A stretch of 54,772 nt of DNA from a virus. The stretch lies in the IMG/VR virus record IMGVR_UViG_3300028430_000584; one strand, given 5' to 3'. Shown in pieces: positions 35,630 through 53,409 of the stretch (position 1 is the stretch's first letter; every line of letters starts with the position of its first letter). Made by a program: the position numbers and the translations under genes. The notes under the pieces were generated by a model. The model saw nothing but the letters and a program-made list of their open reading frames with translations. It had not been told where the DNA came from and searched no databases.

Positions 35630-37651
35630 TTAGACGAGAGCGTCTCCAACGCGGGAGGAGTTGGGCTTGTAGCGTTTGGCGGCGTTTGTGAGAACAGCAT
35701 CGAATATCTCCGGGGTCACTTGATCGAGTGACGAGATGAGGGGGAGTCCGGTCTTGGGGTGAAGCATACGCCCCTGCTGAACCATCTTGGTGAGGTCGAT
35801 CGCTTCGGGTGCATCAGCGGGACGAAGAGCACGAACACCCGACTTGATGACGAATGAGGACATCGACACTGCATCGAGTGCGTCGTCGTGTTCCAGCCCG
35901 CCGTCGTCTCGCTCAGGGTTGAAGCCGTCGAGCTGCTCAAAGAGCATGGACCAGTTGGGCTGGCTGCGATAGAAGACGGGAAGCTTGATGAGGTTGTGGT
36001 TGAAGCGGTGTTGGAGCGTCGAGATCTTGGCGTTTTTGGAGGCGGTGCCCATACCGCTGAGTTTGTGGATGGCAGGCAGCGAGCCGAGGTCGGAAGTGGA
36101 GGTGCGGCTGTAGACGTTGACGAGGGAGCGGAGCTGGTTGTAGAGAACCAGCGACTCCTTGATCGCTTCAACGTGGATGGAGCGACAGCCCCACTTCTTG
36201 GCCATAGCAAGGATCTCGACGCAGAACTTGTCGAGTGAGGGCTTGCCGCAGTAGAGGTCGAGGACGTACAACTCGTTGAGCGGGGTATGCGCCATCAAGC
36301 AGCACACCTTGAAGTCCGAGTTGGCGTTCTCGGTGTAGGCGTGATCGACCGTCATGAAGAGGCGGCTGGTCGCCAACAGGTTGGTCAGCGTCATCGAATG
36401 CTCGGTGCCGTCGCGGATGGTGTGGACGCGAGTGAGCGAGCCGCGAGGGTCGGTCTGAAGTTTACCGTCAATGGCCGAGAACCAGTAAGAGAGTGGCGAT
36501 TGGGTTTCAGTGAGGGAGGGGAAGAAGGCACGGGAGCCGGTACCGGGCCGTGCCATGTACTCGGCCTCGAATGAGGGAGTGCCGATCGTGGCTCGGATGC
36601 GCTCAAGTGAGAAGCGGCCACGCAGCTCGGGGTTGGCGAGGATGTCGGCCTCAGAGACGGGCCACATGTCAGGCCATGCCGACACGAGGTTGCCCGCATC
36701 ATCGTTGTAGGCGGCACGGATGACAAGCCGGTTCCAGTAGTTGAAACGGGAGTCGAGAGCGAGTGGGCCGTTGGGCGATTCGATCGTCTGCATCGCGCGC
36801 CAGGCGTAGTGGCGGCGGGAGATGAAGGTGGCAATCCAGCGGATGAATGCGCCGGGGATCTGGATCATGGGCAGGACACGCGAGAAGAGCATGTCCTCGA
36901 AGTTGGCACGACGATCGTACATGGAAGTGGAGGAAGTGCCCTCGTACTCAGCGTCGTCGATGTCGATGGAAATGGGACGACGACCACGCATCCGCGACTC
37001 GACAGAGCCGGAGCGGACGTTGGAACCGTTGGTCAGGAAGAAGAACGCGTCACCCCAAGGACGCTCGCCGCGTTTGGGTTGGATGCGACCGCCAAACTCA
37101 GGCAGCGGAGTGAAGTCGTCGAAAATGCGACGATTCTCGGTACACTGAGCCTTGATGCGAATGCCGTTGTCGATGGCGTTGTCGTTGCTGCTGGTGTAGT
37201 AGGTGTTGGACCAGCCGGGGTATGTGAGGCAGTGCATCAAGTTGGTGATGCGAACCTGCGTGGACTTCGAGAAGCCACGCGGGCACACAATGATGGATGC
37301 TGCCTCCTGCGAGTAGTGGCGGCGATCGAACGCAGAGGGGCGAAAGGTGGAGCGGCCCCACACACGCAGCAGACTGAAGTGGGCCGGAGCGGACTTTACG
37401 AGGCCGTTTTGGTAGAACGACGGATCGAAGTCGTCGGCGGGGTCGGGGTAGAGGTAGTAGCGGTTGAAGAAGTTGACTGAGGCTGCGTAGAGGTCAGACT
37501 GGACGGTAGGGTCGGCTGCGTGGACGAGCCACTGACGGCAGGCGTTGACTCGGGCGAGCCGCTGTCCGTCGTCGTCAAGCTCGGGGTAGTCAGCGGGGAG
37601 TGGGTAGTAGGGATTGTTGAGCCGTGAGACTTGGACGACTGCGGGCGGCAT
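35630..37651 (-). CDS. Terminase large subunit
   Basis: Walker-A-like CPRGFSKST. Size about 670 aa. Upstream of the portal. ATG 37651 has GGAG 8 nt upstream. The ORF track also allows a start at 37729. Confidence 0.75.
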   Translation of the reverse strand: MPPAVVQVSRLNNPYYPLPADYPELDDDGQRLARVNACRQWLVHAADPTVQSDLYAASVNFFNRYYLYPDPADDFDPSFYQNGLVKSAPAHFSLLRVWGRSTFRPSAFDRRHYSQEAASIIVCPRGFSKSTQVRITNLMHCLTYPGWSNTYYTSSNDNAIDNGIRIKAQCTENRRIFDDFTPLPEFGGRIQPKRGERPWGDAFFFLTNGSNVRSGSVESRMRGRRPISIDIDDAEYEGTSSTSMYDRRANFEDMLFSRVLPMIQIPGAFIRWIATFISRRHYAWRAMQTIESPNGPLALDSRFNYWNRLVIRAAYNDDAGNLVSAWPDMWPVSEADILANPELRGRFSLERIRATIGTPSFEAEYMARPGTGSRAFFPSLTETQSPLSYWFSAIDGKLQTDPRGSLTRVHTIRDGTEHSMTLTNLLATSRLFMTVDHAYTENANSDFKVCCLMAHTPLNELYVLDLYCGKPSLDKFCVEILAMAKKWGCRSIHVEAIKESLVLYNQLRSLVNVYSRTSTSDLGSLPAIHKLSGMGTASKNAKISTLQHRFNHNLIKLPVFYRSQPNWSMLFEQLDGFNPERDDGGLEHDDALDAVSMSSFVIKSGVRALRPADAPEAIDLTKMVQQGRMLHPKTGLPLISSLDQVTPEIFDAVLTNAAKRYKPNSSRVGDALV

Positions 37652-38076
37652 GACACGGACTCCGACGTGGCAAGAAGGTTGGGATTGACGTGGATGGCGT
37701 ACGCGGCCATCGCCACCATAACGTGGCACTTGCCAAGGAACGTGCAGGCTTCGTCGATCTGCGACTCACAGACGGCTTCGTTGATGGGGATCTGCCACTC
37801 AAGCGGCAATGCCTGAGCGGTCCACAGATCGACGACCTTCATGAAGAGACCGCCCCAGTACACGTCGTTGTGAGAGGAGCGGTTGCACGGATTCATGAGA
37901 CCAAGGCTCTTGAAACCACGCAACAACCACGTAAAGCAGTCACGCGGTTCGTTCTGAAGAATCACTTTGCGGATGTCGCTGAAGAGCCTCTGCTGATGGG
38001 GCAGCCAAGTCGGCGGACCCGAATGAGGCTGGAAGGAGGTTGCGTTCGCATTGAGGGTCGCGTTGCTGATCGACAT
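37396..38076 (-). CDS. Hypothetical protein (226 aa); the tail overlaps the terminase gene
   Basis: ATG 38076 is preceded by GGAG. The plausible domain ends near 37650, and the S/T/P-rich remainder overlaps TerL by about 256 nt. Confidence 0.4.
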   Translation of the reverse strand: MSISNATLNANATSFQPHSGPPTWLPHQQRLFSDIRKVILQNEPRDCFTWLLRGFKSLGLMNPCNRSSHNDVYWGGLFMKVVDLWTAQALPLEWQIPINEAVCESQIDEACTFLGKCHVMVAMAAYAIHVNPNLLATSESVSCRPQSSKSHGSTIPTTHSPLTTPSLTTTDSGSPESTPAVSGSSTQPTLPSSLTSTQPQSTSSTATTSTPTPPTTSIRRSTKTAS

Positions 38077-38425
38077 CAGGAGACTCCAAAATGATGCGGG
38101 TAGCGGTGAGAGTGGTGACACGACCGTCTGGGGTGCGTGTGGTTTGGGTGGCCTGCTTGACGGCACCAGCGGCCTCAAGCGACTTAGCGGCGGTGCTCAG
38201 GAAGAGGGGGATGGCTCGGAGAGAGACGGCGGGGTCGGGGGAGCGGACGTGGGTGATGAGCGTATTGACGAGTTCCGCTTGGTCGAAGCCGTTTTCGACG
38301 CACGACGTTCCGAACCCGTCGGGGTTGAAGAAGGAGGCTGCGACTTCTGCTCCGCTGGAATGGACCACAGCGTTTCGGCGAGGCCGGGGGAGCTGGGGCA
38401 ATTGTCCTGAAAGTTCGGGTGGCAC
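37940..38425 (-). CDS. Hypothetical protein (161 aa, GTG start)
   Basis: ORF track. Overlaps neighbours at both ends. The start is uncertain. Confidence 0.3.
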   Translation of the reverse strand: MPPELSGQLPQLPRPRRNAVVHSSGAEVAASFFNPDGFGTSCVENGFDQAELVNTLITHVRSPDPAVSLRAIPLFLSTAAKSLEAAGAVKQATQTTRTPDGRVTTLTATRIILESPDVDQQRDPQCERNLLPASFGSADLAAPSAEALQRHPQSDSSERTA

Positions 38426-39561: not shown

Positions 39562-40965
39562 ATGTCCGGGTCAGCACCAGTCAGGGTTGTGGTTGAGAGC
39601 GATGCACCAGCGGATCTGGCGAGGCGGGCGATGGCTGTGGTGTGGGGTTGCACGGCGAGCAAGCGGGGGCTGTTGTGGTGGAAGGGTACGTGGCTGATGT
39701 GGCGCGAGACGAGTCCGGGTGTGGGAAGGTGGGAGGTGGGGGTGAACGAGACGGAGATGAGGGCTGCGTTGTGGGAGTTTCTGAGTGTGTGCGTGACTGA
39801 GGAGCAAGAGGATGAGATGACCACGGTGACGACGCGGGTGAGGGTTGATAAGCGGATGGTGGACGATGTGATGGATGCCGTCAAGGGCTTCAGCTTGTTC
39901 AAGGCGGAGACGCTGCCGGTGTGGCTGAGGAAGCCGCAGGGTGTGGAAGAGTGGGAGTGTGTAGGGTTTGAGGATGTGGTGGTCAATGCGAGGACGGGGG
40001 AGACGTGGGAGCGGACTCAGGATTGGGTGGATGTCGGTGTGCTGCCGGTGGCGTGGGCCAGTGGACGAGCGGAATGCCCCCTGATGGATCGGACGGTGAG
40101 TGAGTGGGGTGAGGGGCAGGAGAGGTGGGTGGAGATGTGGTGGAGGCTGATGGGACTGGCAGTGGGGAATGAGCGGAGGTTAGGGGTTATTGGGGTGCTG
40201 GAGGGTCTGACGAGAGGAGGGAAGGGGGTGACGAGCAGGTTGGTGAAGAAGCTGAAGGGAGCGGGGGCGTTTATGACGGACGTGAAGAGTCTGACGAGCG
40301 AGTATGGGTTGTGGGGTGCGCAGGTGGCGGGAGTGATCGTGGTTGAGGAGGTGAGCAAGCTCGGGAAGAGTCAAGCAGAGACGGCAGGTAGCGTGGTGAA
40401 GAAGGTGGTGGGACGGGACGTGCTGACGCTCAATGGGAAGTGGCAGTTGCCGGTGCGGACGCAGATCAATGCGACTGTGCTGATGGTCGGCAACACGATC
40501 CCTAACTTGCCGGACCATGCGAGGGCCATCAGCAGCAAGCTGAGGGTGCTGCCGTTCAACAGGAGTTGGGCGGGCAAAGAAGATCCGGGGCTGGAAGAGA
40601 AGCTGGAGGCGGAGCTGGCGGGGGTGGCGAGGAAGGCGGTGGAGGCGTTGGGGCGGGTGCTGAGGGAGCCGGACAGTGCGAAGAAGTTTGACGTGGAGCT
40701 GGGACGCGAGGAGGTAGAGGATTTCCAGAGGGAGGTGAATGAGGCGGATGACTTCCTGTGCCAGTGGTTTGTGAAGGTGGGGAGCGGGATGGTGGCCGCT
40801 GCGACGATGTGGGAGGTGTTCAGGAGGGAGAGGGGGCCTGTCATGAGCGAGAACAGGTTCCACAAGGGGTTCATGAAGACAACCAGTTGGGCACTGGGTA
40901 GGAGGAAGGTGAACGGGCGGATGTTCTATGTGGGGCTGGCGATGAAGGCGGATGGGCAGGAGTGA
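39562..40965 (+). CDS. SF3 (D5 / P4-primase C-terminal-like) replicative helicase
   Basis: Walker A is GLTRGGKGVTS. Walker B is GVIVVEEV. ATG 39562 is preceded by GAAGGA. The coding strand is extremely G-rich and C-poor. Confidence 0.65.
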   Translation: MSGSAPVRVVVESDAPADLARRAMAVVWGCTASKRGLLWWKGTWLMWRETSPGVGRWEVGVNETEMRAALWEFLSVCVTEEQEDEMTTVTTRVRVDKRMVDDVMDAVKGFSLFKAETLPVWLRKPQGVEEWECVGFEDVVVNARTGETWERTQDWVDVGVLPVAWASGRAECPLMDRTVSEWGEGQERWVEMWWRLMGLAVGNERRLGVIGVLEGLTRGGKGVTSRLVKKLKGAGAFMTDVKSLTSEYGLWGAQVAGVIVVEEVSKLGKSQAETAGSVVKKVVGRDVLTLNGKWQLPVRTQINATVLMVGNTIPNLPDHARAISSKLRVLPFNRSWAGKEDPGLEEKLEAELAGVARKAVEALGRVLREPDSAKKFDVELGREEVEDFQREVNEADDFLCQWFVKVGSGMVAAATMWEVFRRERGPVMSENRFHKGFMKTTSWALGRRKVNGRMFYVGLAMKADGQE

Positions 40966-40987: not shown

Positions 40988-41003
40988 CCCCCCACTCAAG
41001 GTT
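40988..41003 (+). repeat. Dispersed repeat copy CCCCCCACTCAAGGTT
   Basis: Left arm of the terminator hairpin. Confidence 0.95.
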
Positions 41004-41035
41004 TGTTGGTGGCTTGTCTTGTGACAGGCAACCAG

Positions 41036-41050
41036 CACCTTGAGTGGGGG
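41036..41050 (-). repeat. Dispersed repeat copy (reverse)
   Basis: Right arm of the terminator hairpin, followed by TTTTT. Confidence 0.95.
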
Positions 41051-41124
41051 TTTTTCGTTGAGGGCGTTAGGGTGCGGGAGAGGGTGGGGAGGGACGGGGA
41101 GGTGGAAGGCGGGCCACAACTTCC

Positions 41125-41153
41125 TTATATATATTTTTCAGGTGTCAAAAAAA
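41125..41153. promoter_or_regulatory. AT-rich island in a GC-rich non-coding region (candidate promoter or DNA-unwinding element)
   Basis: ttatatatatttttcaggtgtcaaaaaaa is the most AT-rich stretch seen in the window. Confidence 0.3.
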
Positions 41154-41165
41154 CGAGTTGTAGTT

Positions 41166-41184
41166 GGGGAGGGAGTCCCTCCCC
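41166..41184. repeat. Perfect 19-bp palindrome GGGGAGGGA-G-TCCCTCCCC
   Basis: Read directly. It lies 13 nt downstream of the AT-rich island. Confidence 0.85.
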
Positions 41185-41280
41185 AAAGAGAACGTGTGGC
41201 GATTTGTGACGATTGTGGGGGTGTGAGGGGGGTAACTGAGGCGAACGTGGCGGGGAGGGAGTGCGGAAGGAGCGAAAATC

Positions 41281-41321
41281 TGCCTCCCTAAATGGGCTTC
41301 CCTCCCCAAGCCAGGGAGGCA
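41281..41321. repeat. Inverted repeat tgcctccct / agggaggca with a 23-nt spacer
   Basis: Read directly. Shares the GGGAGG / CCTCCC theme with the 41166 palindrome. Confidence 0.7.
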
Positions 41322-41659
41322 CGAAAAGGGAGGAATGGGGAGGCAGGGGTACTAACGGAAGGAGAACGAGTCGTTAGGGTAGGAATTTTGAGAGGGGTGG
41401 GGTGTTTCCGCTCGCCGCAAGGCCGCGAGCCGGGGGGTGTGCCACCCGCCCGGGCCGCCTGCTTGCCCCCACTGTAACCTAGATGGGCTAGGGGTAAGAC
41501 GCATGCAAGTTATACCCTCGCAAACTTGACCCGATCGGACAGAATGCCTATTGTTCTTGGCTTGCCGATCCCCAGCCTACGTTGGCGCGGGGTCCGCTGG
41601 CCGCGACCGCCCCCGCGTGAACGGGGCGCACCGGGTCCGACGGACCCAAGGAAGTTCCC

Positions 41660-42142
41660 ATGAATGCAATCGTCGCCCCCGCCCCCGCCCCCGTGTCTAG
41701 CGCGGCCGCGCCCCCTAAGGCTAAGAGGGAGAGCGCGAAGGAACTTTGCAATCGCTACCTTGCGCAATACTTTGCGCTGGTGGATGCCACATCGTCTCGC
41801 GCGATCAAGCGCGCGGCCGGCATCCCAGAAACGACAAAACTCGCCGATCTTACCGACGAACAAGCCGCGCTCTACGCTGAAACTCGCGCGGCCGTTCAAT
41901 CGGAAGAATGGTGCGCCGCGTTGAACGGTTGGGCGGCAAAACTCCGCGCGGAGCGAGTAGCGGGTGGCGTGCGTCTGACCGATTGCCATGCACCGCTGGT
42001 GAAGAGACTCATCGACGCGGGCGAGTACACCCCGACCGGACGGCCCGTCACTGTGTTGGAATGGATCACCGCGCGTGTGATCGTAAAAACCACCAGCGCG
42101 GCGCGCGTCCGTGCGTCGATGACCCCCCGCAAGCGTAAGTAA
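41660..42142 (+). CDS. Hypothetical protein (160 aa) with atypical CpG- and GCG-rich codon usage
   Basis: ATG preceded by AAGGAAG. GCG and CGC codons dominate, unlike the GCC, CTC and TCC usage of neighbouring genes. Confidence 0.55.
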   Translation: MNAIVAPAPAPVSSAAAPPKAKRESAKELCNRYLAQYFALVDATSSRAIKRAAGIPETTKLADLTDEQAALYAETRAAVQSEEWCAALNGWAAKLRAERVAGGVRLTDCHAPLVKRLIDAGEYTPTGRPVTVLEWITARVIVKTTSAARVRASMTPRKRK

Positions 42143-42840
42143 ACTAATCGGTTCCCCTACCCGATCCGATCCCTAGCGGGATTGTATCGGATTCCGCCCC
42201 TAGGCGCGAAAGCCCCTAGACGTGGACCCGCACCGGGCATACGGTACGTGCGGGTGACTCGGCTATAGGTGCGCGCTGTGAGCCCTGCGCGTACTGAAGT
42301 GGGTACTGGCCCAGTAGGTTCCCCCGTCGGGAATAATGCCTACACCAGACTAGATGCGAACGCCGCATAGGGCACCCCCCTACTGACCACGTTCGCAGCG
42401 TCCCCCGCCCCGCATTGTCCGACTCCATCGGGCCACGCGGTGTAGGGTGCCGGTATCATGCCTCTCCAAGGGCACGGGCCTAATCCCCCGTAGACACCGG
42501 ATCACACGCCGCATTCGCATCTATCCCCGTTGTCGATAACGGGACGTCGCTCTACTGTGGCCCGCCTAGCAAGCGCACCATCCACCGCACCGACCAATCG
42601 ACCGCCGCCCACCCGTTACATGGGCACCCCCCACAAGTTCCGATACGCTCAGGTTCGGTACATGCACCTACTGGCATCACCCGTAGGTCGGTGTTTGCTC
42701 ACCTGCCAACGCATGTAGCACGTTCAGCCCGCATTCGTTAGTGGGGTAACGCCAACTCAATCCGCACCCTCTCTTCACCGGGAGGGTGCGGCTTCCCTGT
42801 GTCCCCTCCCCCATCCCACTCCCCTCATCAGGAGCCACCC

Positions 42841-43209
42841 ATGTCCACTCTGCTGTCCAACCTGCTTGGCTTCCGTTCCGCGTCTGAACTGCTCGCCCGC
42901 ATCGACGCCCGTGCGGCCGACACCACCATCTCCCCCTACCACGCCATGTGCTATCGCCTTGTCCCCACCCTCGTCGATCAGATGATGGGCTCCGCCATCT
43001 GCGGCGACCTCCGCTCCCGCACCTACACCGGCCTCGCTGCCGACTTCCAATCCTCCGGCGTCATGCCCAGCATCGACTACACTCTTCGCACCATCCGAGC
43101 CATTGCCCTCACCCAGCCATCGCTACCCTCCACTCACTGCCCCCTCATCGAGCGTGAACGCATCGCCCTGCTCGCCCTCGTCCTCGTCGCCCTCAACCTC
43201 ACCGTCTAA
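42841..43209 (+). CDS. Hypothetical early protein (122 aa)
   Basis: ATG preceded by CCCCTCATCAGGAGCCACCC. Within ORF 42799..43209. Confidence 0.5.
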   Translation: MSTLLSNLLGFRSASELLARIDARAADTTISPYHAMCYRLVPTLVDQMMGSAICGDLRSRTYTGLAADFQSSGVMPSIDYTLRTIRAIALTQPSLPSTHCPLIERERIALLALVLVALNLTV

Positions 43210-43329
43210 CCCGCCGCCCCTTGTTGCGGCACCATAGAGCCCCTGTGGCTAGCCCCCACTCACATAACGTGCGTGGCGGGCTTTCCGCTGCACCCGTCGT
43301 GTAGCCCCTCCCCATCAGGAGCCGCCCCC

Positions 43330-43617
43330 ATGTACGATCCCTTCGACCGTCGCACCCTCGCCTCCGCCGCGACCCGCTTCGATGCCCGCCTCCGCCACTG
43401 CATCGCCGAGAACATCCGGCCCCGCTCGCTCGTCACCTTCCCCTGCCCCTACAGCGGCAAACGCATCTCCGTCCAGCGTGGCGGTCCCTCTCCCACCCAC
43501 GCCCCCTCCCCGCTCTGCTACACCCTAACTCTCGGCCCTCGCCCCGCCTCCCCGCACCGCGCCGCTCGCAACGCCGCCCGCCGCGTCCGCCGCAACGCCC
43601 GCACCCCTACCCGCTAA
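43330..43617 (+). CDS. Hypothetical early protein (95 aa)
   Basis: ATG preceded by CCCCATCAGGAGCC. Within ORF 43273..43617. Confidence 0.5.
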   Translation: MYDPFDRRTLASAATRFDARLRHCIAENIRPRSLVTFPCPYSGKRISVQRGGPSPTHAPSPLCYTLTLGPRPASPHRAARNAARRVRRNARTPTR

Positions 43618-45579: not shown

Positions 45580-45594
45580 CCCCCACTCAAGGAA
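45580..45594 (+). repeat. Dispersed repeat copy CCCCCACTCAAGGAA
   Basis: 5 nt upstream of ATG 45600. Confidence 0.95.
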
Positions 45595-45599
45595 TCCTT

Positions 45600-45926
45600 A
45601 TGTCAACCACCCCGTTCCCCACTCTCATTGTCATGGGTCGTCTCCCCTCCGACACCCGCGACACCCGCGACACCCGCGACACCGCCTCCGCTGTCCTCTC
45701 CTACCAGCTCGGCTCCTACTACGAGAACAGCACCAAGAACACCATCTACGCCGCAGCCAAGCGCATGGCCCGAGAGATCAACGCTCACGGTGCCCCTCGT
45801 ATCCAAGCCCTCATTACTGCCAAGCGCCTCGTCCCCAATGGCACCAACAACCCCGACGCTCGCCCTGCCGCTGGCTTCAGCATCAGCGTCGTCTGGCCGG
45901 GTGGCCGTGTCAGTGTCATTCGCTAA
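45600..45926 (+). CDS. Hypothetical protein (108 aa) containing a (DTR)x3 repeat
   Basis: The ATG lies 5 nt after repeat copy CCCCCACTCAAGGAA. There is a 9-nt tandem repeat at 45651-45677. Confidence 0.5.
   Translation: MSTTPFPTLIVMGRLPSDTRDTRDTRDTASAVLSYQLGSYYENSTKNTIYAAAKRMAREINAHGAPRIQALITAKRLVPNGTNNPDARPAAGFSISVVWPGGRVSVIR
45651..45677 (+). repeat. Tandem repeat (gacacccgc)x3 plus a partial fourth unit
   Basis: Read directly. Encodes DTRDTRDTRDT in 45600..45926. Confidence 0.9.
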
Positions 45927-46081
45927 CTCTCACCGCCCTCCTGATGGCCGGGTGCGTCTCTCACGGGGCGTGCTCGGTTTCGTGTGCCGTGCCATGCACA
46001 CACCCCCACTCCCACTCAGTACGTGCAGCGTGTGCTGCCGCTGTGTGTGATGGGGTCAACCCCTCCAACAAGGAGCAAAAC

Positions 46082-46336
46082 ATGGCTGTTACCAACGTTC
46101 GCGTCACCGACTCTCGCAACAACACCCGCCGCGTCTTTGAGGTTCCCGAGGGCAGCACCGTCGCTGCCGTCCTCACCGCTGCTGGTGTCCCCTTCAGCGA
46201 GTCGGGGTACGCCATCACCTACCGTGCGGCGGGCACCTCCACCATCACCGCCCTCACGCCGGATGGGATCAACAACACGGTCGTCACCGACATGTCCGAC
46301 GTGTTCGCCACCTTCACCCAGCAGAAGGGCAACTGA
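46082..46336 (+). CDS. Ubiquitin-like / ThiS-MoaD-like beta-grasp protein (84 aa), C-terminus ...TQQKGN
   Basis: ATG preceded by AAGGAG. The pattern VRVTD..RRVFEVPEGSTVAAVLTAAGVP...ITYRAAG...VVTDMSDVFATFTQQKG-N parallels ThiS/MoaD topology, with a near-terminal Gly. In an operon with JAB and E1 genes. Confidence 0.55.
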   Translation: MAVTNVRVTDSRNNTRRVFEVPEGSTVAAVLTAAGVPFSESGYAITYRAAGTSTITALTPDGINNTVVTDMSDVFATFTQQKGN

Positions 46337-46337
46337 T

Positions 46338-46353
46338 CCCCCCACTCAAGGTC
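46338..46353 (+). repeat. Dispersed repeat copy CCCCCCACTCAAGGTC
   Basis: Starts 1 nt after the stop codon of the Ubl gene. Confidence 0.95.
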
Positions 46354-46434
46354 AGTGACTCACCGTGCTGACTCGGGCAGGATGGCCTATCGGCTGTCCT
46401 GCTCTTTCCATTCCCCCACTCAGGAGTTCCCATC

Positions 46435-48498
46435 ATGCCCGTCTCCCCGCACGCCACCCTCACCGACCTCTTCCCCCCTCTCCCCTACGAAAGTCCCGAC
46501 CCAATCAACTTCGACGGCTCGACCTTTTCCTACCCCAACTTCACGGCTCCCGGTCCCGTCTTCACCCGCCATTCCAACCTCGTCGCCTACTCCCTCTCCT
46601 CCGACTCTGACATTGCCGCCGCCCGCCGAGTCTTCTCCCGCTACGCCCACCGCGCCCTAGATCCCGCCCCCTCCTTCTCCTCTCGCCGCGAAGCAATCCG
46701 CCTCCTCCTCACTGCCCGCGAACTCTCCTCCCGCGCCTCCACTTTCCTCGCCAGCCCTACCTCCGCTCGCCTCCACCGCTTCCGCGCTTCGCTCACCCGC
46801 CTCTCCCAGGCCGCCACCGCCTCCACCACCATTAGTTACCTCGATTCCCTCGTCCCACCCGTTCCCTTCAACCCTCTCAAGCCCAACCGCAGCCACCCCC
46901 TGCACTGGCTCTCCGTTTTCGACAACCTCGTCTCCGCCGCCCGTCACTTCTTCCCCCTCTCCTACCTCGTACTCAACCACTCCAGTTCTCAGTGGACCCT
47001 CTACTTCCAGACCCACCCTATCAAGATGCGGTTCCTCGAAGGCTTCCTCCCCAACTTCACCTGCGATTCCGACAATCTCGGCCAGTACCTTCTCCTCCCC
47101 GCTGTCCGTGGCATCCTCCCCCTCCATCTCTCCCTCAACGACTTCACCCGCACCACTCCCTACGCCAACTCTCCCGACGCATCTAACTCCTTCTATATGT
47201 CCAACCGCCAGATTGAATTCTTCCAACCCTACTCCATCCGCACCCATTCCACCCGCCCCCGCCCCGGCTCGACCTTCCCTCACTCCTTCCGCCACCCCCA
47301 CATCTCCAGCTCCCGCGTTTCTTCTCCTTACGCCACCATCTGCCACTCCAACCACTACAAAGAAACCTGCGCCTCTCGCTATTACAACGGCGACTACTAC
47401 TCGCTCATCGCCGACACACTCTCCGTCCTCTCCACCTACAACCCCGGCTCCCCCTACTTCCAACTCTCCGACATCTCCGCTTCCGGTCCCATCACCGTCT
47501 GCCCCCATTGCAACGAGTCCTACGACCCCGCCACCTCCGGCATACGCCCCATCTCCCGCGTCACTCCAACCGCCATCCGCAGAGACCCTGACCCTCACCA
47601 CGCCCCCTGCCTTGTCCCTGTCCCCTGCTTCCACACCCACTTCTTACACAACCCCACCACCCTCACCGACTCCTACGAACTACCCTCTCTCCGCATTACA
47701 ACAGCCGATCCCAACTACGGCTACGACGACACCGACAACTGCCCACTCCACATCACCCCTTCTTTCCTTGACGACTACTGTTTCTCGCATCATACCTACA
47801 CCATCAACTCCCACTCCATCTCAGCCTTCGTCCGTTCCGCTATCCGCGACACCATCACCACTCCCGGCCAACACAAGCCGCTCTCCCACCACTTCCAAGC
47901 TCGCTTCGTCCGCACCCTCACCCCTCACCTCTCCGTTCCCACTCCCTCCTTCGGCGATCCTTCCCCGCCCCTTCCCCTCCCCGCCACCCTCATCTCCAAC
48001 CACCTCCCCCTCTACCACCTCTTCACTTGCGACCCCATTACGGAGCAGATTCCAGCTACCCTCTCCGGCTCAACCCACACTCGCTACGCTTTCTCGATTC
48101 CCCTCCACGAACAGATCTACTTTGCCAACGCTGCTGCCATCGACAAGTTTCTCTGGCGATACGACACATTCCTCACTGCCATCACCGCCGCCCGGGCAGG
48201 TCGCACCTTCATGCGGCTCAACGAGCTGCCCCCGCATCTACGCCCCATCCTGTTGCTCGATCCCTCCCCCATAGACAACCCGTCATCTCCCACCGACCTG
48301 CCCACCACCATCTCTCGCCTCTCCGACTTCTTCCGTGTCATCGTCTGCCCTCCCTTCTCTCAGATCGCTGACACCCTCATCGCTCAAGCCAGCACTCAAG
48401 ACGAAGTGGACCGCATCGTTGCAGACCACTTCGCTGCCATCAACTCGCACCCCATCCCGGAGCCGTCCAATGTCGAATCGCAAGCCGCCGTCGTCTGA
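46435..48498 (+). CDS. Large orphan protein (687 aa) in the E2 position of the Ubl operon
   Basis: ATG preceded by CCCCCACTCAGGAG. No family motif was recognised by eye. Several Cys/His clusters: CPHCNESYD, HHAPCLVPVPCFHTHFLH. Confidence 0.55.
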   Translation: MPVSPHATLTDLFPPLPYESPDPINFDGSTFSYPNFTAPGPVFTRHSNLVAYSLSSDSDIAAARRVFSRYAHRALDPAPSFSSRREAIRLLLTARELSSRASTFLASPTSARLHRFRASLTRLSQAATASTTISYLDSLVPPVPFNPLKPNRSHPLHWLSVFDNLVSAARHFFPLSYLVLNHSSSQWTLYFQTHPIKMRFLEGFLPNFTCDSDNLGQYLLLPAVRGILPLHLSLNDFTRTTPYANSPDASNSFYMSNRQIEFFQPYSIRTHSTRPRPGSTFPHSFRHPHISSSRVSSPYATICHSNHYKETCASRYYNGDYYSLIADTLSVLSTYNPGSPYFQLSDISASGPITVCPHCNESYDPATSGIRPISRVTPTAIRRDPDPHHAPCLVPVPCFHTHFLHNPTTLTDSYELPSLRITTADPNYGYDDTDNCPLHITPSFLDDYCFSHHTYTINSHSISAFVRSAIRDTITTPGQHKPLSHHFQARFVRTLTPHLSVPTPSFGDPSPPLPLPATLISNHLPLYHLFTCDPITEQIPATLSGSTHTRYAFSIPLHEQIYFANAAAIDKFLWRYDTFLTAITAARAGRTFMRLNELPPHLRPILLLDPSPIDNPSSPTDLPTTISRLSDFFRVIVCPPFSQIADTLIAQASTQDEVDRIVADHFAAINSHPIPEPSNVESQAAVV

Positions 48499-50044
48499 CC
48501 ATCCCACCGTCCAGCCCACCGTCACCCTCTCCGCTCTCGCCTACCTCAAACTCCACCTGCTCGCCCTTGCTCCCTCCATCTCCAACGACGAGCCCAACCC
48601 GCTCCGCACCCGCGAGACCGCCGCTCTCCTCATACCCGACCCCGCCGATCCCTTCAAGATCATCGACATTTTCGTCCCCCGCCAACAATCCACCGCAGCC
48701 TCCTTCGAGATCGACCCCACCGACTCGCTCTCCGTCTTCGACACCTCCCCCAACGCACTCCCCTGCTGCACCAACCTCATCTTCCACACCCACCCCGGCG
48801 AGTCCGCCACCCCCTCCGGCGGCGACGACTCCAACTGGCGCACCGTCCAATCGACTGGCCCCTTCGCCATGATGCTCATCTTCGGTCGCCCCACCTCACC
48901 CACCGCCTTCCCCGAGTTCTCTCTCCGCGTCCGCTATCCCCTTGGCCCCGCCGTCATCCCCGGCTTCCCCGCTCTCGCCTCCTCCCCTCCCGTCTACGAC
49001 GGCCCGGCCAAGCTCCTCTACTACTGCCCCTTCCGTGCCTTCCTCGAAGATGGCACACCCTTCCCCCTCTCCCCCGCCGATCGTCTCGCTTTCCTCCAGT
49101 CCGCCCTCGCCGCCAATCCCGGCGCACCCACCATCACTCCCGCCACCATCTACTCCCACAACCTCACCACCAACTGGCACACCCAGTCCGAATCCAAGAA
49201 CGAAGCCCTCAAGCGTTCCCTCTACGCCCAGCTCTCCTCCTTCGTTCACCCTCCCTTCCAATCCGTCACCTCTCAGCACGCCCGCTCCCTCGGCTACATC
49301 CCCCTCTCCGAAGCTGTCAACCAGTCGTGGCTCATTCCCGACTCCGAATCCTTCCCCTACCTCGTTCACCCCGACGCTGCCCCCGTCATCCGCAAAGCGT
49401 GGCACGACTTCATCGGCAACATGCAGTCCTTCATGGGCACCCTCCTCACCCCTGTTGCCACATGGCTCGCCTCCTCCCTCACCCCCTACTTCGCTCAATC
49501 CAAGTCTCAATCTGACTCTGGCCCCCTCGTCCAGTACAAGCGTGCCACCTCCTTCTCTAAGTGGCGTGCCATGCTCACCCCCTCCACCTTCCCCACCCTG
49601 CTCCCCATCTTCAACCCCAGCCTCAACCCCACCAACCCCGAGGACACTTGGTACGAAGCCTTCTACGCCATCGAGTGGCGACCCCACTCCTCTCCCATCT
49701 CCGTCTCCGACATCAAGGATTTCATCGCCGACTCCCGCGTCTTCCAGTACGACGAATCCACCGGCGCATTCCGCATCTCGTGGTCTGCTGCCCGTGACGA
49801 GTGGGAGTGGACCCCCTCCGACGTGTCCCGCATCAACACCCTCCTCCTCACTCTCAACCCCGACCAATCCATCCTCGCCGTCGGCTGCCTCCTTCGCTAC
49901 GAACTCGCTTGGTCCCACATCTGCGAGCACAGTACCTTCTCAGAGTCCGACGCTCTCGACACTGCATTCACAGAAGTCTTCGACGAACTCGTCACTTCCC
50001 TCACCGCCCTCAAGACCACCACCCAGCAGGAGTTGTACTCATGA
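48470..50044 (+). CDS. JAMM/JAB (MPN+) metalloprotease domain protein (524 aa)
   Basis: FHTHPGESATPSGGD is an exact H-x-H-x7-S-x2-D JAMM motif, with an upstream Glu (RETAALL). About 380 aa of C-terminal extension have unknown function. The stop overlaps the E1 start (ATGA). Confidence 0.75.
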   Translation: MSNRKPPSSDHPTVQPTVTLSALAYLKLHLLALAPSISNDEPNPLRTRETAALLIPDPADPFKIIDIFVPRQQSTAASFEIDPTDSLSVFDTSPNALPCCTNLIFHTHPGESATPSGGDDSNWRTVQSTGPFAMMLIFGRPTSPTAFPEFSLRVRYPLGPAVIPGFPALASSPPVYDGPAKLLYYCPFRAFLEDGTPFPLSPADRLAFLQSALAANPGAPTITPATIYSHNLTTNWHTQSESKNEALKRSLYAQLSSFVHPPFQSVTSQHARSLGYIPLSEAVNQSWLIPDSESFPYLVHPDAAPVIRKAWHDFIGNMQSFMGTLLTPVATWLASSLTPYFAQSKSQSDSGPLVQYKRATSFSKWRAMLTPSTFPTLLPIFNPSLNPTNPEDTWYEAFYAIEWRPHSSPISVSDIKDFIADSRVFQYDESTGAFRISWSAARDEWEWTPSDVSRINTLLLTLNPDQSILAVGCLLRYELAWSHICEHSTFSESDALDTAFTEVFDELVTSLTALKTTTQQELYS

Positions 50045-51018
50045 CCATCGACGACACCCGCTTCGCCGCCCTCCTCCCTCCCTCCATCCGTTCCCTCCCC
50101 GTCACCATCATCGGTTGCGGCGGCACCGGCGCAGCCTTCGCCCGCCAACTCGCCTACACCGGCTTCACACACCTCACCCTCATCGACTTCGACACCATCG
50201 AGCCGCACAACCTCGGCCCCCAAGGCTGGTCCGCTGCCCAGCTCGGCCTCCTCAAGGTCGAAGCTCTCGCTTCCGAACTCCGCATCGCCCGTCCCTCCAT
50301 CTCCATCACCTACCACGCCCGTCGCTGGTCCGCCGCCCACGACCTCCGCTCCTGTACCCCCATCGTCTGCTCCTGCGTAGACTCACGCGACACCGACGCC
50401 TTCATCGCCTCCAAGCTCATCCCCCACTTGGAAAATCGTCCAGATCCCTACCTCTACCTCTCCCCCCGTGTCCGCGCCATCGACTACGTCCTCCGCTCCA
50501 TCTTCGACGCCCCCTCCTACGCCTCCTACCTCTCCGCTCACTTCCCCGATTCCGCCGTCCCTCCCGAGCCCGGCTCATGCGGCGTGCCCACCACCCTCTA
50601 CGGCAACACCGCTCTCGCCTGCTTGATGCTCGACAATATCCGTCGCCGCTTCACCGGCTTCCCTGTCATCACTTACGCTCAACGCTCCTTCCACACCCCG
50701 CCTGCCTGCTGGCTCCACGAAGAAGCCGACCAAGACACACTACGCTCTCCAGTCACTGTCACCCCGCCCACCCCACCCGCTCGCCGTGACACCATCCCCC
50801 ACGACCCCAACACCGAGCACTACCTTAGTGAAGTGCGGGCCGTCCGCATCACCCCCTCCATCGAAGCCGCAATGTCCCGTGCCAACCCGGCACACAACCT
50901 CCAGTCTCGTCCCAGCATCCTCTCCCGCACGGAGGAGGACGCCTCCAACCCCCACGGCTTCCTCGAACGCACCCGTGGCGGTCCCCTCCCCCAAATCCCC
51001 ACCGACCTCCCCTCCTAA
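50041..51018 (+). CDS. ThiF/MoeB/E1-like adenylating enzyme (325 aa)
   Basis: VTIIGCGGTGAAFARQLAYTGFTHLTLIDFDTIEPHNLGPQ, then PIVCSCVDSRDTDAFI and GSCGVPTTLYGNTALACLMLDNI, follow the E1/ThiF Rossmann and downstream motifs. Confidence 0.8.
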   Translation: MTIDDTRFAALLPPSIRSLPVTIIGCGGTGAAFARQLAYTGFTHLTLIDFDTIEPHNLGPQGWSAAQLGLLKVEALASELRIARPSISITYHARRWSAAHDLRSCTPIVCSCVDSRDTDAFIASKLIPHLENRPDPYLYLSPRVRAIDYVLRSIFDAPSYASYLSAHFPDSAVPPEPGSCGVPTTLYGNTALACLMLDNIRRRFTGFPVITYAQRSFHTPPACWLHEEADQDTLRSPVTVTPPTPPARRDTIPHDPNTEHYLSEVRAVRITPSIEAAMSRANPAHNLQSRPSILSRTEEDASNPHGFLERTRGGPLPQIPTDLPS

Positions 51019-51028
51019 GGAGCACACC

Positions 51029-51268
51029 ATGCGTGAAATCGTACACATCAACAAGTCCGTCACCGGCATCACCCACGCTTCTCGTGAGATCCTCATCGAA
51101 CCCTGTCCTCCCAACACCGCCTGTTCCTACCGTGTCTGGGTACAGATTGAGATCGGCGGCTTCGACACCCCTCTCATAAAGCAGGAAAGTTACATCTCTC
51201 TCAGCCGTGACGAATACCTCTCCCTCCGCTTTGAACTCGACCGTCGCTTCGAGATCACCCATGCGTGA
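51029..51268 (+). CDS. Hypothetical protein (79 aa)
   Basis: ATG preceded by TAAGGAGCACACC. Directly downstream of the E1 gene. Confidence 0.5.
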   Translation: MREIVHINKSVTGITHASREILIEPCPPNTACSYRVWVQIEIGGFDTPLIKQESYISLSRDEYLSLRFELDRRFEITHA

Positions 51269-51929
51269 GCCCACTCCCCTGCCTATCGCACCCTGCACCT
51301 CCTGTCCCCAGCACGAGACCGCCCTCTTCAATCCCGTCCCTCCCATCCTCCCCTCCTCCCTCACTCACCCCCCTCTCATCATCCTGCTCCCCGCCCCCTC
51401 GACCGATTCTCGCTCCGGCTCCATCCTCGCCTCTCGCACCTACCGTCTCGTCTCCTCCGCCTTCATTCCCCTCCTTCCCCCCATCTCACCCATCTTCATC
51501 CCCATCCTCCGCTGCGTCGTCACCGCCCCCTCCCGCGTGAAGCCCGCCTTCTACACCACCTGCTCTCGAACCCACCTCCTCCCCACCCTCCTCTCCCTTC
51601 TCCCTCACCTTCCCCCCACCCCCACCCCCATCCTCTGCATCGGCGCGCCAGCCGTCCGCTCCCTCCACTCTCTCCTCCACTCTCCTTGCTCCCAAGCCGA
51701 AGCCTTCTCCACTCAAGGCTCCGTCTTCCCGCTCCCCTCCACCCCCTTCTCCATCCAACGTTTCGCTACGCTCGACCCCGCCGAGATCCTCCTCCGCCCC
51801 GAGCGCAAGTCCACCGCCTTCTCCCACCTCTCCCTCCTCTCCACCCACCTCTCCGGCTCACCACCCGCCATCTCCACACCCACCATCGTCCCACCCGGCC
51901 CACCCCCCACTCAAGGTGCTTCACAATGA
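51261..51929 (+). CDS. Possible family-4 uracil-DNA-glycosylase-fold protein with a degenerate active site (222 aa)
   Basis: CTSCP...PPLIILLPAPSTDSRSGSILAS...ILRCVV...ILCIGAPAVRSL parallels the order of UDG4 motifs (CxxC, GEAPG..ED..G.PF.G, N.VKCRP, LG..A). The catalytic residues differ. Confidence 0.3.
   Translation: MREPTPLPIAPCTSCPQHETALFNPVPPILPSSLTHPPLIILLPAPSTDSRSGSILASRTYRLVSSAFIPLLPPISPIFIPILRCVVTAPSRVKPAFYTTCSRTHLLPTLLSLLPHLPPTPTPILCIGAPAVRSLHSLLHSPCSQAEAFSTQGSVFPLPSTPFSIQRFATLDPAEILLRPERKSTAFSHLSLLSTHLSGSPPAISTPTIVPPGPPPTQGASQ
51903..51918 (+). repeat. Dispersed repeat copy CCCCCCACTCAAGGTG
   Basis: 7 nt upstream of ATG 51926. Confidence 0.95.
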
Positions 51930-52159
51930 GCGACAAGCCTGCTCCCGATACGCCCTTCTCCCTCTTTCGTGAACTCGCCGAGATGGATGACTGGATGGTA
52001 CCAGTTACTCGCTACGGGAACGTAGAAGGTCACGAGTGCTTCTTCTGCCGGGCCAAGGTGCATTTTGGCTATATCACAGGTATAACCGTAGAGCACGAGC
52101 CCACTTGCCTCTATGTTCGTGCTCGTGCCCTCCTCGCATCCACCCCTCACTCAAGGTAA
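51926..52159 (+). CDS. Hypothetical protein (77 aa)
   Basis: The ATG lies 7 nt after repeat copy CCCCCCACTCAAGGTG. Confidence 0.5.
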   Translation: MSDKPAPDTPFSLFRELAEMDDWMVPVTRYGNVEGHECFFCRAKVHFGYITGITVEHEPTCLYVRARALLASTPHSR

Positions 52160-52166
52160 CTAACCC

Positions 52167-52406
52167 ATGCACATCGTCTGTACCGACCATCGGCCCACCT
52201 CTCCCCACAAGCGCAAGGTCAGCGAACTCCCGCCCAACACCGTCGTCACCGTCGAAGGCAGCCCCTACGTCGTCATGGTGTCCGGCGTTGCACTCATTGA
52301 CCTCGCTGGAGATCTGCGATGCGTCTCCCCCGACCTCAGCGAATACATCATGCGGCAAACCCCCTACGTCATACACGGTTCCTTCCGCATCAACTCCGTC
52401 GGCTAA
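52167..52406 (+). CDS. Hypothetical protein (79 aa)
   Basis: ORF track. Preceded by a degenerate repeat copy, CCCCTCACTCAAGGTA. Confidence 0.5.
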   Translation: MHIVCTDHRPTSPHKRKVSELPPNTVVTVEGSPYVVMVSGVALIDLAGDLRCVSPDLSEYIMRQTPYVIHGSFRINSVG

Positions 52407-52421
52407 CCCCCACTCAAGGCG
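52407..52421 (+). repeat. Dispersed repeat copy CCCCCACTCAAGGCG
   Basis: 6 nt upstream of ATG 52428. Confidence 0.95.
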
Positions 52422-52427
52422 ATTCAC

Positions 52428-52595
52428 ATGGGTAAGACAAGACGCTCACCCCGCCAGAACAAACTTGTCTCAGTCAGGGTCAAAGCTAACGCTGGCGACT
52501 ATCGCACCACCCGCAAGTTCCACGTCCTCAAAGCCATCCCCTTCCGCCAGTTCAAGGCGGAACTCACCGCCCGCGAATCCCTCACCCCGGAGTAA
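52428..52595 (+). CDS. Hypothetical small basic protein (55 aa; below the ORF-track cutoff)
   Basis: Hand translation MGKTRRSPRQNKLVSVRVKANAGDYRTTRKFHVLKAIPFRQFKAELTARESLTPE. The ATG lies 6 nt after repeat copy CCCCCACTCAAGGCG. Confidence 0.45.
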   Translation: MGKTRRSPRQNKLVSVRVKANAGDYRTTRKFHVLKAIPFRQFKAELTARESLTPE

Positions 52596-52598
52596 CCC

Positions 52599-52922
52599 GT
52601 GCCACGCACCCCCACCCCCACCCGTAAGCCCGTCAAGCCCCGCTACTCGCTCTCCGACCTACGCACCCTGTCCGACCAACTCCGCGATGATGTCTCCCGT
52701 GCCACCTCCTTCCTCAGCAGGTCCCGTGTCAAGGGCTACACCCGCTCCATCCGCACCTTGCCTCCCGATCGCCTCCGCTTCTCGTCCTCCCTCCTGAAGT
52801 CCTATCGTTCGCTCCGCTCCGCCCACTCCCTCTCCTTCCGCCCCACCACCTGCCCCACCACCTACGACCGCCGCATCCTCATCGACATGCGTCGCCTCGC
52901 TGCCGACATCCTCTCACGCTGA
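52599..52922 (+). CDS. Hypothetical protein (107 aa, GTG start)
   Basis: ORF track. Confidence 0.4.
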   Translation: MPRTPTPTRKPVKPRYSLSDLRTLSDQLRDDVSRATSFLSRSRVKGYTRSIRTLPPDRLRFSSSLLKSYRSLRSAHSLSFRPTTCPTTYDRRILIDMRRLAADILSR

Positions 52923-52948
52923 GCACTACATCTGACCCCCACCCACCT

Positions 52949-53311
52949 ATGCTCATCCCACCTACTCCACACAACTACCGGCCCCGTCTCACCCAGAAGC
53001 TCCGGCGCAAGATCGGTTGGCTCGTATCCATCTTGCCCGACCCTGATTCGATGCCCACGTCCGCTCAATCTCGTGACCTGAGCGACGTTCTTCGCTATCT
53101 CACCTTCCTCTCCAGCGAGGACACATGCCCAGCCCAGCCCGACGAAAGCCCCGAGTCCACTACTTCTCCCACCCTCGCTGCCCCGTCCTCACTTCCTCAG
53201 TCATCGCTGGACTCCAGCTCCTCCACTCCTCCTACTCCCTCGAATACCGCTCCCGCTCCATCAAACCCCAACCACCCACCCGAGCCGAACTCCGCCACCT
53301 CCACGCCCTGA
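52949..53311 (+). CDS. Hypothetical protein (120 aa); the C-terminal half is probably read-through
   Basis: ORF track. The first ~60 aa are varied. The rest is S/P/T-rich and overlaps 53125..53409. Confidence 0.35.
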   Translation: MLIPPTPHNYRPRLTQKLRRKIGWLVSILPDPDSMPTSAQSRDLSDVLRYLTFLSSEDTCPAQPDESPESTTSPTLAAPSSLPQSSLDSSSSTPPTPSNTAPAPSNPNHPPEPNSATSTP

Positions 53312-53409
53312 CCAACTGGCTCGCTCGCATGTCCGCCTTCTCCGTCTCGCTCGGTCCCCAAACGCCCACCCGCCGCTTCTCCCTCCCTCCCCCCAAGGCC
53401 CACCCATGA
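53125..53409 (+). CDS. Hypothetical protein (94 aa)
   Basis: ORF track. The alternative frame overlaps 52949..53311. Confidence 0.35.
   Translation: MPSPARRKPRVHYFSHPRCPVLTSSVIAGLQLLHSSYSLEYRSRSIKPQPPTRAELRHLHALTNWLARMSAFSVSLGPQTPTRRFSLPPPKAHP

Follow-up and report, generated by a model that had tools for sequence, protein, structure and literature searches.

A strong strand-based GC skew that changes sign beside the helicase gene of an uncultured freshwater phage

Replication-linked asymmetry in base composition between DNA strands is a known kind of feature, and GC skew is routinely used to place the origins and termini of phages and plasmids, a use that assumes a G-rich leading strand. 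Here we analyze GC skew in IMG/VR virus record IMGVR_UViG_3300028430_000584, a stretch of 54,772 nucleotides (hereafter the window) from an uncultured, freshwater, double-stranded DNA tailed phage, in which the skew changes sign beside the gene of a superfamily 3 (SF3) helicase. As in bacterial chromosomes and plasmids, the asymmetry is strand-based, independent of gene sense, strongest at synonymous sites and present in non-coding DNA, with two sharp switches on the circular map, one of them beside a replication initiator gene. It differs from the bacterial pattern in that its sign is reversed, provided that the element beside the helicase gene is the origin, its arms are very unequal and it involves purely G versus C; at about 0.8 at four-fold degenerate sites it also lies, to our knowledge, greatly above bacterial values. 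What is new here is the amplitude, the sign relative to an origin-like element and the effect on conserved enzymes; a literature search returned no description of such skew in phages.

In strength, the nearest counterpart is vertebrate mitochondrial DNA, where G falls to about 5% of four-fold sites on one of the heavy and light strands. The two share a comparable four-fold amplitude, proteins dragged along by the bias and a family A polymerase, and AT-rich relatives of the window phage display the same G+T versus A+C signature. The window differs in belonging to a tailed phage with an SF3 helicase, in a polarity that flips within the molecule and in the absence of a simple gradient with distance. 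Its skew is, as far as we know, among the strongest for double-stranded DNA and comparable in amplitude to that of vertebrate mitochondria.

The closest described replication module is the Rep/PriRep-ori system of staphylococcal pathogenicity islands (SaPIs), whose origin comprises 6-12 iterons directly downstream of the rep open reading frame (ORF), pointing in opposite directions and lying half on each side of an AT-rich region, and whose Rep translocates 3'->5' along the leading strand (PMC9371898). The window phage has a homologous helicase, a cis-element directly 3' of its gene and opposed iterons around an AT-rich core, and in its family, as among SaPIs, the iteron sequence is lineage-specific. 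Unlike a SaPI, it is a 55-kb lytic-type phage with no fused primase domain, a terminator hairpin between gene and iterons, and an origin that is putative. We know of no report of compositional skew in SaPIs. The gene arrangement recalls N4-like phages (Schitoviridae), with early and middle genes on one strand and late genes on the other, a late operon that starts in the neighbourhood of the large terminase gene (TerL) beside a few oppositely reading genes, and remote TerL similarity; the window differs in lacking a recognisable virion RNA polymerase and in its replication proteins, and N4 and its relative EcP1 are without the skew. Regions that form R-loops (ColE1 RNA II, the mitochondrial conserved sequence block, immunoglobulin switch regions and CpG-island promoters) are likewise comparable to the helicase gene: a G-rich transcript runs over a C-rich template and enters an origin-like AT-rich element in a replicon with a family A polymerase. 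In the window, a whole 1.4-kb protein-coding gene is skewed, and the R-loop is hypothetical.

The genome is a circle of 54,631 bp, the two ends of the window sharing a 141-bp assembly overlap. GC skew was computed on the + strand in sliding windows of 1 kb and 300 nt. G+C is flat throughout (0.58-0.66), and the whole genome contains 19,542 C and 14,047 G (skew -0.164). From 35.5 to 41.5 kb the 1-kb skew is +0.19 to +0.52, peaking at +0.52 at 39.5-40.5 kb; at 300 nt it runs from +0.15 to +0.60 between 35.5 and 41.4 kb, climbing towards 40 kb. It is approximately zero at 41.4-42.45 kb, -0.3 to -0.62 at 42.45-53.9 kb (1-kb trough of -0.62 at 47-48 kb), approximately zero again from 53.9 kb across the circular junction to 1.05 kb, and -0.37 to -0.52 (1 kb) or -0.35 to -0.62 (300 nt) from 1.05 to 5.45 kb; the remaining genome lies between -0.27 and +0.12. 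At 300-nt resolution the boundaries at 35.5, 41.4, 42.45, 53.9, 1.05 and 5.45 kb are sharp. Non-coding DNA follows its surroundings, with skews of +0.43 at 40966-41400, -0.48 at 3693-4139 and -0.42 at 52923-53124.

A preliminary description of the window had reported a sign change near 41-43 kb, supported by hand counts of G and C in five 60-nt lines. Our recount reproduces all five exactly, and the sliding-window analysis reveals a real, sharp switch. The G-rich block that it placed at 35.6-41.05 kb exists, with its right edge at 41.40 kb; the C-rich block said to begin at about 42.8 kb begins instead at about 42.45 kb; and the region between the two blocks, described as non-coding, is only partly so, as it contains an open reading frame, ORF160. 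That description called one line of the capsid gene roughly balanced; at synonymous sites the structural genes are unbalanced, with a four-fold + strand skew of -0.2 to -0.46. It overlooked both a second switch, which interrupts a co-oriented operon at 35.4-35.6 kb, and the compositionally normal, exchangeable nature of the cassettes at 41.4-42.45 and 53.9-1.05 kb. Its remark that the amplitude is unusually large is borne out by values far above those of relatives.

Four-fold degenerate sites carry the strongest bias, with extremes of +0.77 and -0.88. At these sites the helicase gene has G 0.70 and C 0.09 (skew +0.77), in opposition to the family A DNA polymerase gene PolA (G 0.08, C 0.67), ORF687 (G 0.06, C 0.73) and the genes of the JAB (G 0.07, C 0.74) and ThiF (G 0.06, C 0.65) proteins. 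TerL, on the - strand, has G 0.16 and C 0.55 in sense and thus a + strand skew of +0.54; the genes at 38197-39021 and 39062-39517 show + strand values of +0.25 and +0.60. Codon positions 1 and 2 are also affected (+0.39 in the helicase gene, -0.24 to -0.54 in the large early genes and PolA), and protein composition tracks the bias, as previously claimed: the summed share of G, V, E, W, K, M, R, A and D is 0.68 in the helicase and 0.29-0.39 in ORF687, JAB, ThiF and PolA. For PolA, the share of P, S, T, L and H is 0.42 in this lineage versus 0.29 in unskewed relatives with a uracil-DNA glycosylase (UDG)-PolA.

The asymmetry is a property of the DNA strands and not of the mRNAs, and a simple sense-strand rule is excluded. 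Transcription diverges at 39.3-39.5 kb, between the TerL operon (-) and the helicase gene (+), and four-fold + strand skew is positive in every gene at 35.6-41 kb. From 42.8 kb round to 35.4 kb it is negative in all genes with two exceptions, 28064-29059 (+0.26) and one gene (0.00) of the compositionally neutral island at the circular junction. Because the + strand encodes the helicase, ORF160 and every C-rich early gene, the flip at 41.4-42.45 kb separates co-oriented genes, with opposite skew in the helicase and early genes. A two-domain strand model predicts the correct sign in 53 of 55 genes (weighted R2 0.55), as against 43 of 55 (weighted R2 0.25) for a model in which the sense strand is C-rich; the strand and sense terms together reach a weighted R2 of 0.68. 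The additive model was set aside as a full account, since it fits better yet leaves the helicase an outlier. In the sense strand, four-fold skew spans -0.88 (early genes) to +0.77 (helicase), with the head and tail genes G-rich, mostly at +0.17 to +0.46; no uniform transcription-linked bias is seen.

The same pattern recurs in sister lineages of the phage. The window's TerL is identical to P0001, which is present in over 100 metagenome blocks, among them several JGI samples from Lake Erie and metagenome-assembled genome bins labelled Acetobacteraceae. Lineage B (L001/L002, L022 and L024) has TerL and PolA 78% and 79% identical to those of the window, L003 a TerL 78% identical, and lineage C (L004 and L023) a TerL and PolA 85% and 84% identical. 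Gene by gene, they repeat the skews of the window: +0.77 to +0.79 in the helicase, -0.49 to -0.84 in sense in TerL, and -0.6 to -0.9 in the early genes and PolA. For TerL, PolA, helicase and portal, four-fold identity between lineages is about that expected from composition alone, and because these sites are near saturation divergence the sister lineages provide largely independent readings. The 5.9-9.7 kb part has 91-99% protein identity to lineage B. Beyond these lineages, a search of IMG/VR with exact helicase peptides returned no close relatives, GenBank phages gave no match to the window's TerL at 1e-5 and only 22-24% identity in the helicase search, and no cultured relative was found by TerL or helicase searches. 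A 3.2-kb JGI contig (P0124) encodes a PolA 43% identical to the window's and also rich in S, P, T, H and L; further strongly skewed lineages probably exist.

The second switch lies in the gap between the portal gene and TerL, where four-fold + strand skew passes from -0.32 to +0.54. In lineage B it lies some 7 kb beyond this point, at the sequence orthologous to ~28 kb of the window: in sense, skew is -0.46 to -0.54 (C-rich) in the portal and three head genes, about zero in scaffold and capsid, and +0.19 to +0.47 (G-rich) in the tail genes, which resemble those of the window. The sense-strand sign of head genes differs between sister lineages, and the window gene of odd skew at 28064-29059 coincides exactly with the lineage B boundary. 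Both switches are independent of transcription direction, and the second one moves between sister lineages; no origin-like features were found at it.

At the main flip, by contrast, skew changes no more than about 0.3 kb from a conserved cis-element that directly follows the helicase gene on its 3' side. The helicase family profile matches PDB 7OLA/7OM0 (SaPI5 PriRep5; E 1.4e-16, chain residues 428-756), which makes the protein a self-loading SF3 helicase related by homology to Rep/PriRep. Its gene ends at 40965 and is followed by a strong terminator hairpin (-54.4 kcal/mol, z = -6.25) with perfect 14-nt arms, placed just before G-runs and an AT-rich core; the skew persists for about 350 nt past it. 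The core, at 41120-41160, reads CTTATATATATTTTT...AAAAAAAC. Copies of the iteron GGGGAGGGA stand on the + strand at 41086, 41166, 41252 and 41337 (degenerate) and on the - strand at 41176 and 41299, those at 41166 and 41176 forming a palindrome; iterons thus occur in both orientations and on both sides of the core, as in SaPI-type origins, with only one (41086) to its left. Lineage B and L003 have the same layout with a different repeat, GTAGAGGGT/ACCCTCTAC, at the same positions, and the TATATAT...AAAAAAAC core is invariant between them and the window. Helicase C-termini differ between the window and lineage B, as do the iterons. Distant relatives carry a CTATATA core with inverted or direct repeats of their own just 3' of the helicase gene. 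A promoter scan of the AT-rich core gave no convincing sigma-70 match on either strand. From the helicase homology together with the iteron and AT-core anatomy, the element at 41.08-41.35 kb is most likely a replication origin of the SaPI type.

The flip is an old trait of a large, remotely N4-like family of uncultured phages, weaker elsewhere and extreme in the window's clade. An alignment of helicases retrieved 61 IMG/VR and 17 JGI/Tara loci, from phages of about 50-55 kb with the same synteny and helicases 24-39% identical (leaving aside one fragment of the window phage itself). Helicase sense skew is at least +0.2 in 43 of the 61 IMG/VR loci. Among 18 analyzed relatives with G+C of at least 0.58 and helicases 25-36% identical, all but L085 show the flip, with helicase four-fold G of 0.45-0.67 and C of 0.16-0.29 against C of 0.47-0.66 and G of 0.14-0.29 in the co-oriented downstream genes. 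Some AT-rich members have G 0.32-0.40 and T 0.31-0.37 in the helicase versus A 0.4-0.7 and G 0.00-0.08 in the early genes, a contrast of G+T against A+C; other AT-rich members, and the marine relatives examined first, have no such skew. Family-wide, the changing base is G, whose place is taken by A where the genome is AT-rich and by C where it is GC-rich. In 29 related loci the helicase gene is followed, 7-9 kb downstream, by a UDG-like gene; tblastn and Pfam searches found no such gene or domain in the window, L022 or L023, including upstream of or fused to PolA. Its absence may explain the extremity of the window's clade, a lead that comes from a single clade. The family forms a graded series (no, moderate and near-saturated skew; 37-67% G+C; with and without the UDG-like gene) in which the determinants of the strength and sign of strand asymmetry can be sought, and the phage offers a natural test case for the effect of replication on base composition.

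We rank an origin at the flip above a convergence of polarities there, followed by selection at the transcript or R-loop level and, last, a mosaic ancestry, the remaining probability belonging to explanations not yet conceived. The data support a replication-linked, strand-specific process anchored at the helicase-adjacent element. Our tentative preference, at somewhat short of an even chance, is for forks that leave this element, with reversed sign and near-saturating strength. Replication from this element would impose strand-specific mutation pressure such that the strand with nascent leading-strand polarity loses G on both sides. Speculatively, the SF3 helicase, moving 3'->5' on the leading-strand template, might outrun an uncoupled family A polymerase and leave that template as a long-lived single strand subject to C->U and A->hypoxanthine deamination. 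In AT-rich relatives the outcome would appear as G+T versus A+C, and in this 62% G+C genome the stable sink would be C. Without a UDG-like gene the lineage could have been driven almost to saturation. The same pressure would also remodel proteins, shifting the composition of PolA, terminase, E1-like and JAB proteins far while leaving family signatures recognisable, and recently arrived cassettes (41.4-42.45 and 53.9-1.05 kb) would not yet have ameliorated.

The preliminary description had likewise read the flip as a replication-type switch of sign opposite to the classical one. Its strand basis, with helicase and early genes co-oriented, stands; the sign is opposite if the switch is an origin, where the leading strand would not be the G-rich one, and classical if it is a convergence point or joined ends, the classical leading strand having more G than C and usually more T than A. 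Either the assumption of a G-rich leading strand fails for replisomes of SF3 helicase and family A polymerase, or the forks start elsewhere. Ordinary deamination chemistry would yield the reversed sign only with an exposed leading-strand template. That such a replisome, exposing the leading-strand instead of the lagging-strand template at a SaPI-type origin, operates family-wide strikes us as rather unlikely, about on a par with the rival reading that follows. If true, this would be the first double-stranded DNA replicon with a G-poor leading strand, and a UDG-less lineage at mitochondrial-level saturation in which the amino-acid composition of conserved enzymes has been rewritten.

Several observations weigh against an origin at the flip. 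With an origin there, the sign is the reverse of that in every well-studied replicon. The domains are unequal (6 versus 48 kb in the window, 13 versus 41 kb in lineage B) and disagree with a simple bidirectional origin, which would place the terminus near 14.6 kb. The window's asymmetry is purely G versus C with no strand-based A/T term, so that deamination would have to act together with a postulated GC pressure. The G+T block of AT-rich relatives is limited to the helicase unit, about 2 kb, and strand and sense terms fitted to the main domain predict about +0.3 for the helicase against the observed +0.77. A polarised single-nucleotide polymorphism (SNP) spectrum, tried as a means of separating mutation from selection, was abandoned as the strains are ~100% identical in the skewed arms and yield 7 usable SNPs.

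A possible but rather unlikely alternative is that the flip marks a convergence of replication or resection polarity, being either a terminus or the place where the physical ends of a linear N4-like genome with terminal repeats are joined. The sign would then be classical, the exposed single strand losing C and A, whether as the lagging-strand template of end-bound forks or as 3' tails left by 5'->3' exonuclease/annealase resection, and the second switch would be the real origin or the balance point of two end effects. AT-rich relatives give a textbook deamination signature, G+T versus A+C, with the + strand apparently exposed towards the helicase and the - strand towards the early genes, and amplitude peaks beside the flip on both sides. 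The phage encodes a PD-(D/E)XK exonuclease, a Sak4-like annealase and, from family searches, an ERCC4-like nuclease. The TerL of a marine relative weakly matches EcP1 gp66, the homologue of N4 gp68 (21.8% identity, E 2e-5), and gene order is like that of N4 and EcP1, in that the late operon with TerL occupies one strand, a few genes are read in the opposite direction towards the right end, and the early genes are at the left end; by analogy with N4, a linear form of the genome would have its physical ends exactly at the flip. Many relatives' contigs also end 0.2-2.5 kb beyond the helicase gene. The anatomy of a SaPI-type origin nevertheless sits at the flip and would need another role; N4 and EcP1, taken as positive controls, showed no end-linked skew; and the second switch has no origin-like features and shifts between lineages. 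Nor is a terminal repeat demonstrable: assemblies of the window species are circular with arbitrary start points, and the contig breaks there are explained by a strain-variable cassette. In tests for terminal repeats at the ends of relatives' contigs, one showed a 99-nt overlap resembling an assembler k-mer and one showed no repeat. A JGI contig of 55,419 bp, which exceeds the circle by 788 bp, reflects a walk into the alternative cassette rather than a terminal repeat.

Less likely still, in our judgement, is that the bias has been selected unit by unit at the level of transcripts or R-loops. G-poor early and middle mRNAs would remain unstructured and free of R-loops during DNA uptake and transcription, or would escape a G-dependent nuclease or cope with GTP limitation, and a G-rich helicase transcript running into the origin would form a stable R-loop, opening or priming it for the family A polymerase. 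R-loops open or prime the origins of ColE1, T7 and mitochondrial DNA. G content is the common denominator across the family, the G-rich block of AT-rich relatives matches the helicase transcription unit, and the helicase transcript stops at a strong terminator just before the G-runs and AT-rich core. Skew boundaries fall between genes (-0.85 at 53406-53858 against -0.27 at 53880-54311, 22 nt further), and the sense term raises R2 from 0.55 to 0.68. Positive GC skew is an established determinant of R-loops (PMC3787257). Selection of this kind would account for the local pattern seen family-wide. It would, however, require at least three separate, ad hoc regimes, TerL and its neighbours being C-rich and the portal-to-tail genes G-rich in sense within the same operon. 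The sign in head genes also changes from one sister lineage to another, the skew continues well beyond the helicase terminator, a neutral island lies co-oriented inside the C-rich operon, and Pfam, PHROG and family searches found no RNase, GTP-related or comparable gene. Selection for G-poor mRNA, which the preliminary description had named among possible causes, cannot be the general or the sole one: the helicase transcript is extremely rich in G, and so are, to a lesser degree, the sense strands of 10 of the 11 head and tail genes.

A mosaic of donors with different composition, or an ancient inversion, with no current process, is very improbable and largely refuted, for although cassette exchange is frequent and boundaries are sharp and lie between genes, orthologues keep the same extremes in lineages whose four-fold sites are almost randomised, the synteny around the flip is ancient while synonymous sites equilibrate fast, and the exchangeable cassettes are the neutral parts and not the skewed ones.

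In strains otherwise 99.6-100% identical (L010, L012-L014), 41715-44436 (2.7 kb) is swapped for 2.2 kb of other genes. The replacement genes are already C-rich like the arm, and several public contigs break there. The gene content of the neutral island at the circular junction differs among strains and lineages; a 143-aa gene within it has 97% four-fold identity with lineage B, against 38% expected from composition, and has thus been exchanged recently. The neutral composition of the cassettes fits recent arrival. We had entertained the island as proof of a gene-specific force and rejected that proposal on the recent exchange of this shared gene. Coordinates of these and the other features are collected in Table 1.

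Table 1 Features of the window, ordered from the G-rich domain around the circular map
Feature	Coordinates	Strand	Remarks
G-rich domain (+ strand)	35500..41400	genes both ways	positive skew irrespective of gene direction
Second switch point	35392..35629		238-bp portal-TerL gap, inside one leftward operon
Large terminase (TerL)	35630..37651	-	phrog_38, E 2.6e-36
SF3 helicase (D5_N/DUF5906, SaPI PriRep-like)	39562..40965	+	Pfam DUF5906, PHROG primase/helicase families
Intrinsic terminator of helicase transcript	40989..41058	+	inverted 13-mer pair hairpin, then TTTTT
Origin-like element	41080..41345		AT-rich core and iterons
Neutral strain-variable insert	41401..42450		skew ~0
Sigma-70-like promoter of ORF160	41526..41554		promoter scan
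ORF160	41660..42142	+	normal composition
C-rich, G-poor early arm with ORF687, JAB, ThiF	42451..53870	+	four-fold C 0.51-0.79, G 0.05-0.24
JAB protein	48470..50044	+	Pfam JAB (PF14464)
ThiF/E1-like protein	50041..51018	+	Pfam ThiF (PF00899)
Neutral island, small genes, first part	53880..54631	+	four-fold skew 0 to -0.27
Neutral island, continuation across circular junction	1..1050	+	skew ~0
Second strongly C-rich stretch	1051..5450	+	contains PolA
Family A DNA polymerase (PolA)	1581..3692	+	Pfam DNA_pol_A
Middle genes, moderately C-rich	5451..15092	+	four-fold skew -0.14 to -0.70
PD-(D/E)XK exonuclease	10486..11742	+	family match
Sak4-like annealase	12383..13330	+	family match
Head and tail genes	15606..35391	-	four-fold + strand skew -0.01 to -0.46 in 10/11

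Further observations concern individual loci. An adjacent pair of genes in the early arm encodes the JAB and ThiF/E1-like proteins, a ubiquitin-like conjugation/deconjugation pair, possibly with a counter-defence role; between sister lineages JAB is 47% and ThiF 75% identical. About 50 nt before the first early gene (ATG at 42841), a hairpin with a 10-bp stem at 42759-42794 (CCGCACCCTC ... GAGGGTGCGG), which has no T-run, may be a regulatory or promoter element. The last gene of the late operon (15606-19058, -) encodes a 1150-aa protein with a weak match to the C-terminal part of a 3431-position PHROG profile and one local DarB-like match in the GenBank phage search, and the window gave no match to a virion RNA polymerase. 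In a marine relative (L005, from 20712 onward), a 3,324-aa gene ends the structural operon, recalling the position of the N4 virion RNA polymerase.

Upstream of TerL, a gap of about 545 nt (37652-38196) contains no convincing ORF, the public call there being an antisense ORF with G+C at third codon positions of 0.52. Relatives have a similar gap (537 nt in L003, 540 nt in L004, 280 nt in L001), and candidates for its content are an RNA, a packaging site or a small terminase whose composition is unusual. The window gave no match in Rfam and tRNA scans. Public gene calls vary among assemblies of this phage (at 3.7-4.6, 37.7-38.1 and 51.5-51.9 kb, among others). Stop codons are rare on the C-rich strand, so that several long ORFs overlap in different frames. 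Gene callers err in such regions, placing spurious antisense ORFs in several public assemblies of the same phage, and annotation in the skewed blocks is unreliable. G-quadruplex-type motifs (four runs of at least three G) number 25 on the - strand, 17 of them at 42.8-53.4 kb, and only 4 on the + strand, at 28755, 38696, 39717 and 41062, the last just before the origin-like core.

Finally, an exact 13-mer, CCCCCACTCAAGG (often CCCCCCACTCAAGGTG), is present at 22 sites on both strands, for instance at 2710, 4629, 9970, 14510, 19036(-), 28048(-), 39033/39288(-), 45581, 51905 and 52408, with copies also at 35533-35546(-), in the portal-TerL gap, and at 40990/41038(-), at the helicase terminator. 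It usually stands 6-9 nt before an ATG, its AAGG(A/T)G end acting as a ribosome-binding site, and its copies in the leftward arm are without exception paired, as convergent inverted repeats separated by 50-880 nt. The second skew switch coincides with a 13-mer pair in both lineages examined. The 13-mer is a candidate promoter, RNA operator or processing site, or nick site; it is exactly kept at orthologous sites in three sister lineages, and distant relatives, one of them at 40% G+C, carry related CCCCCAC repeats.

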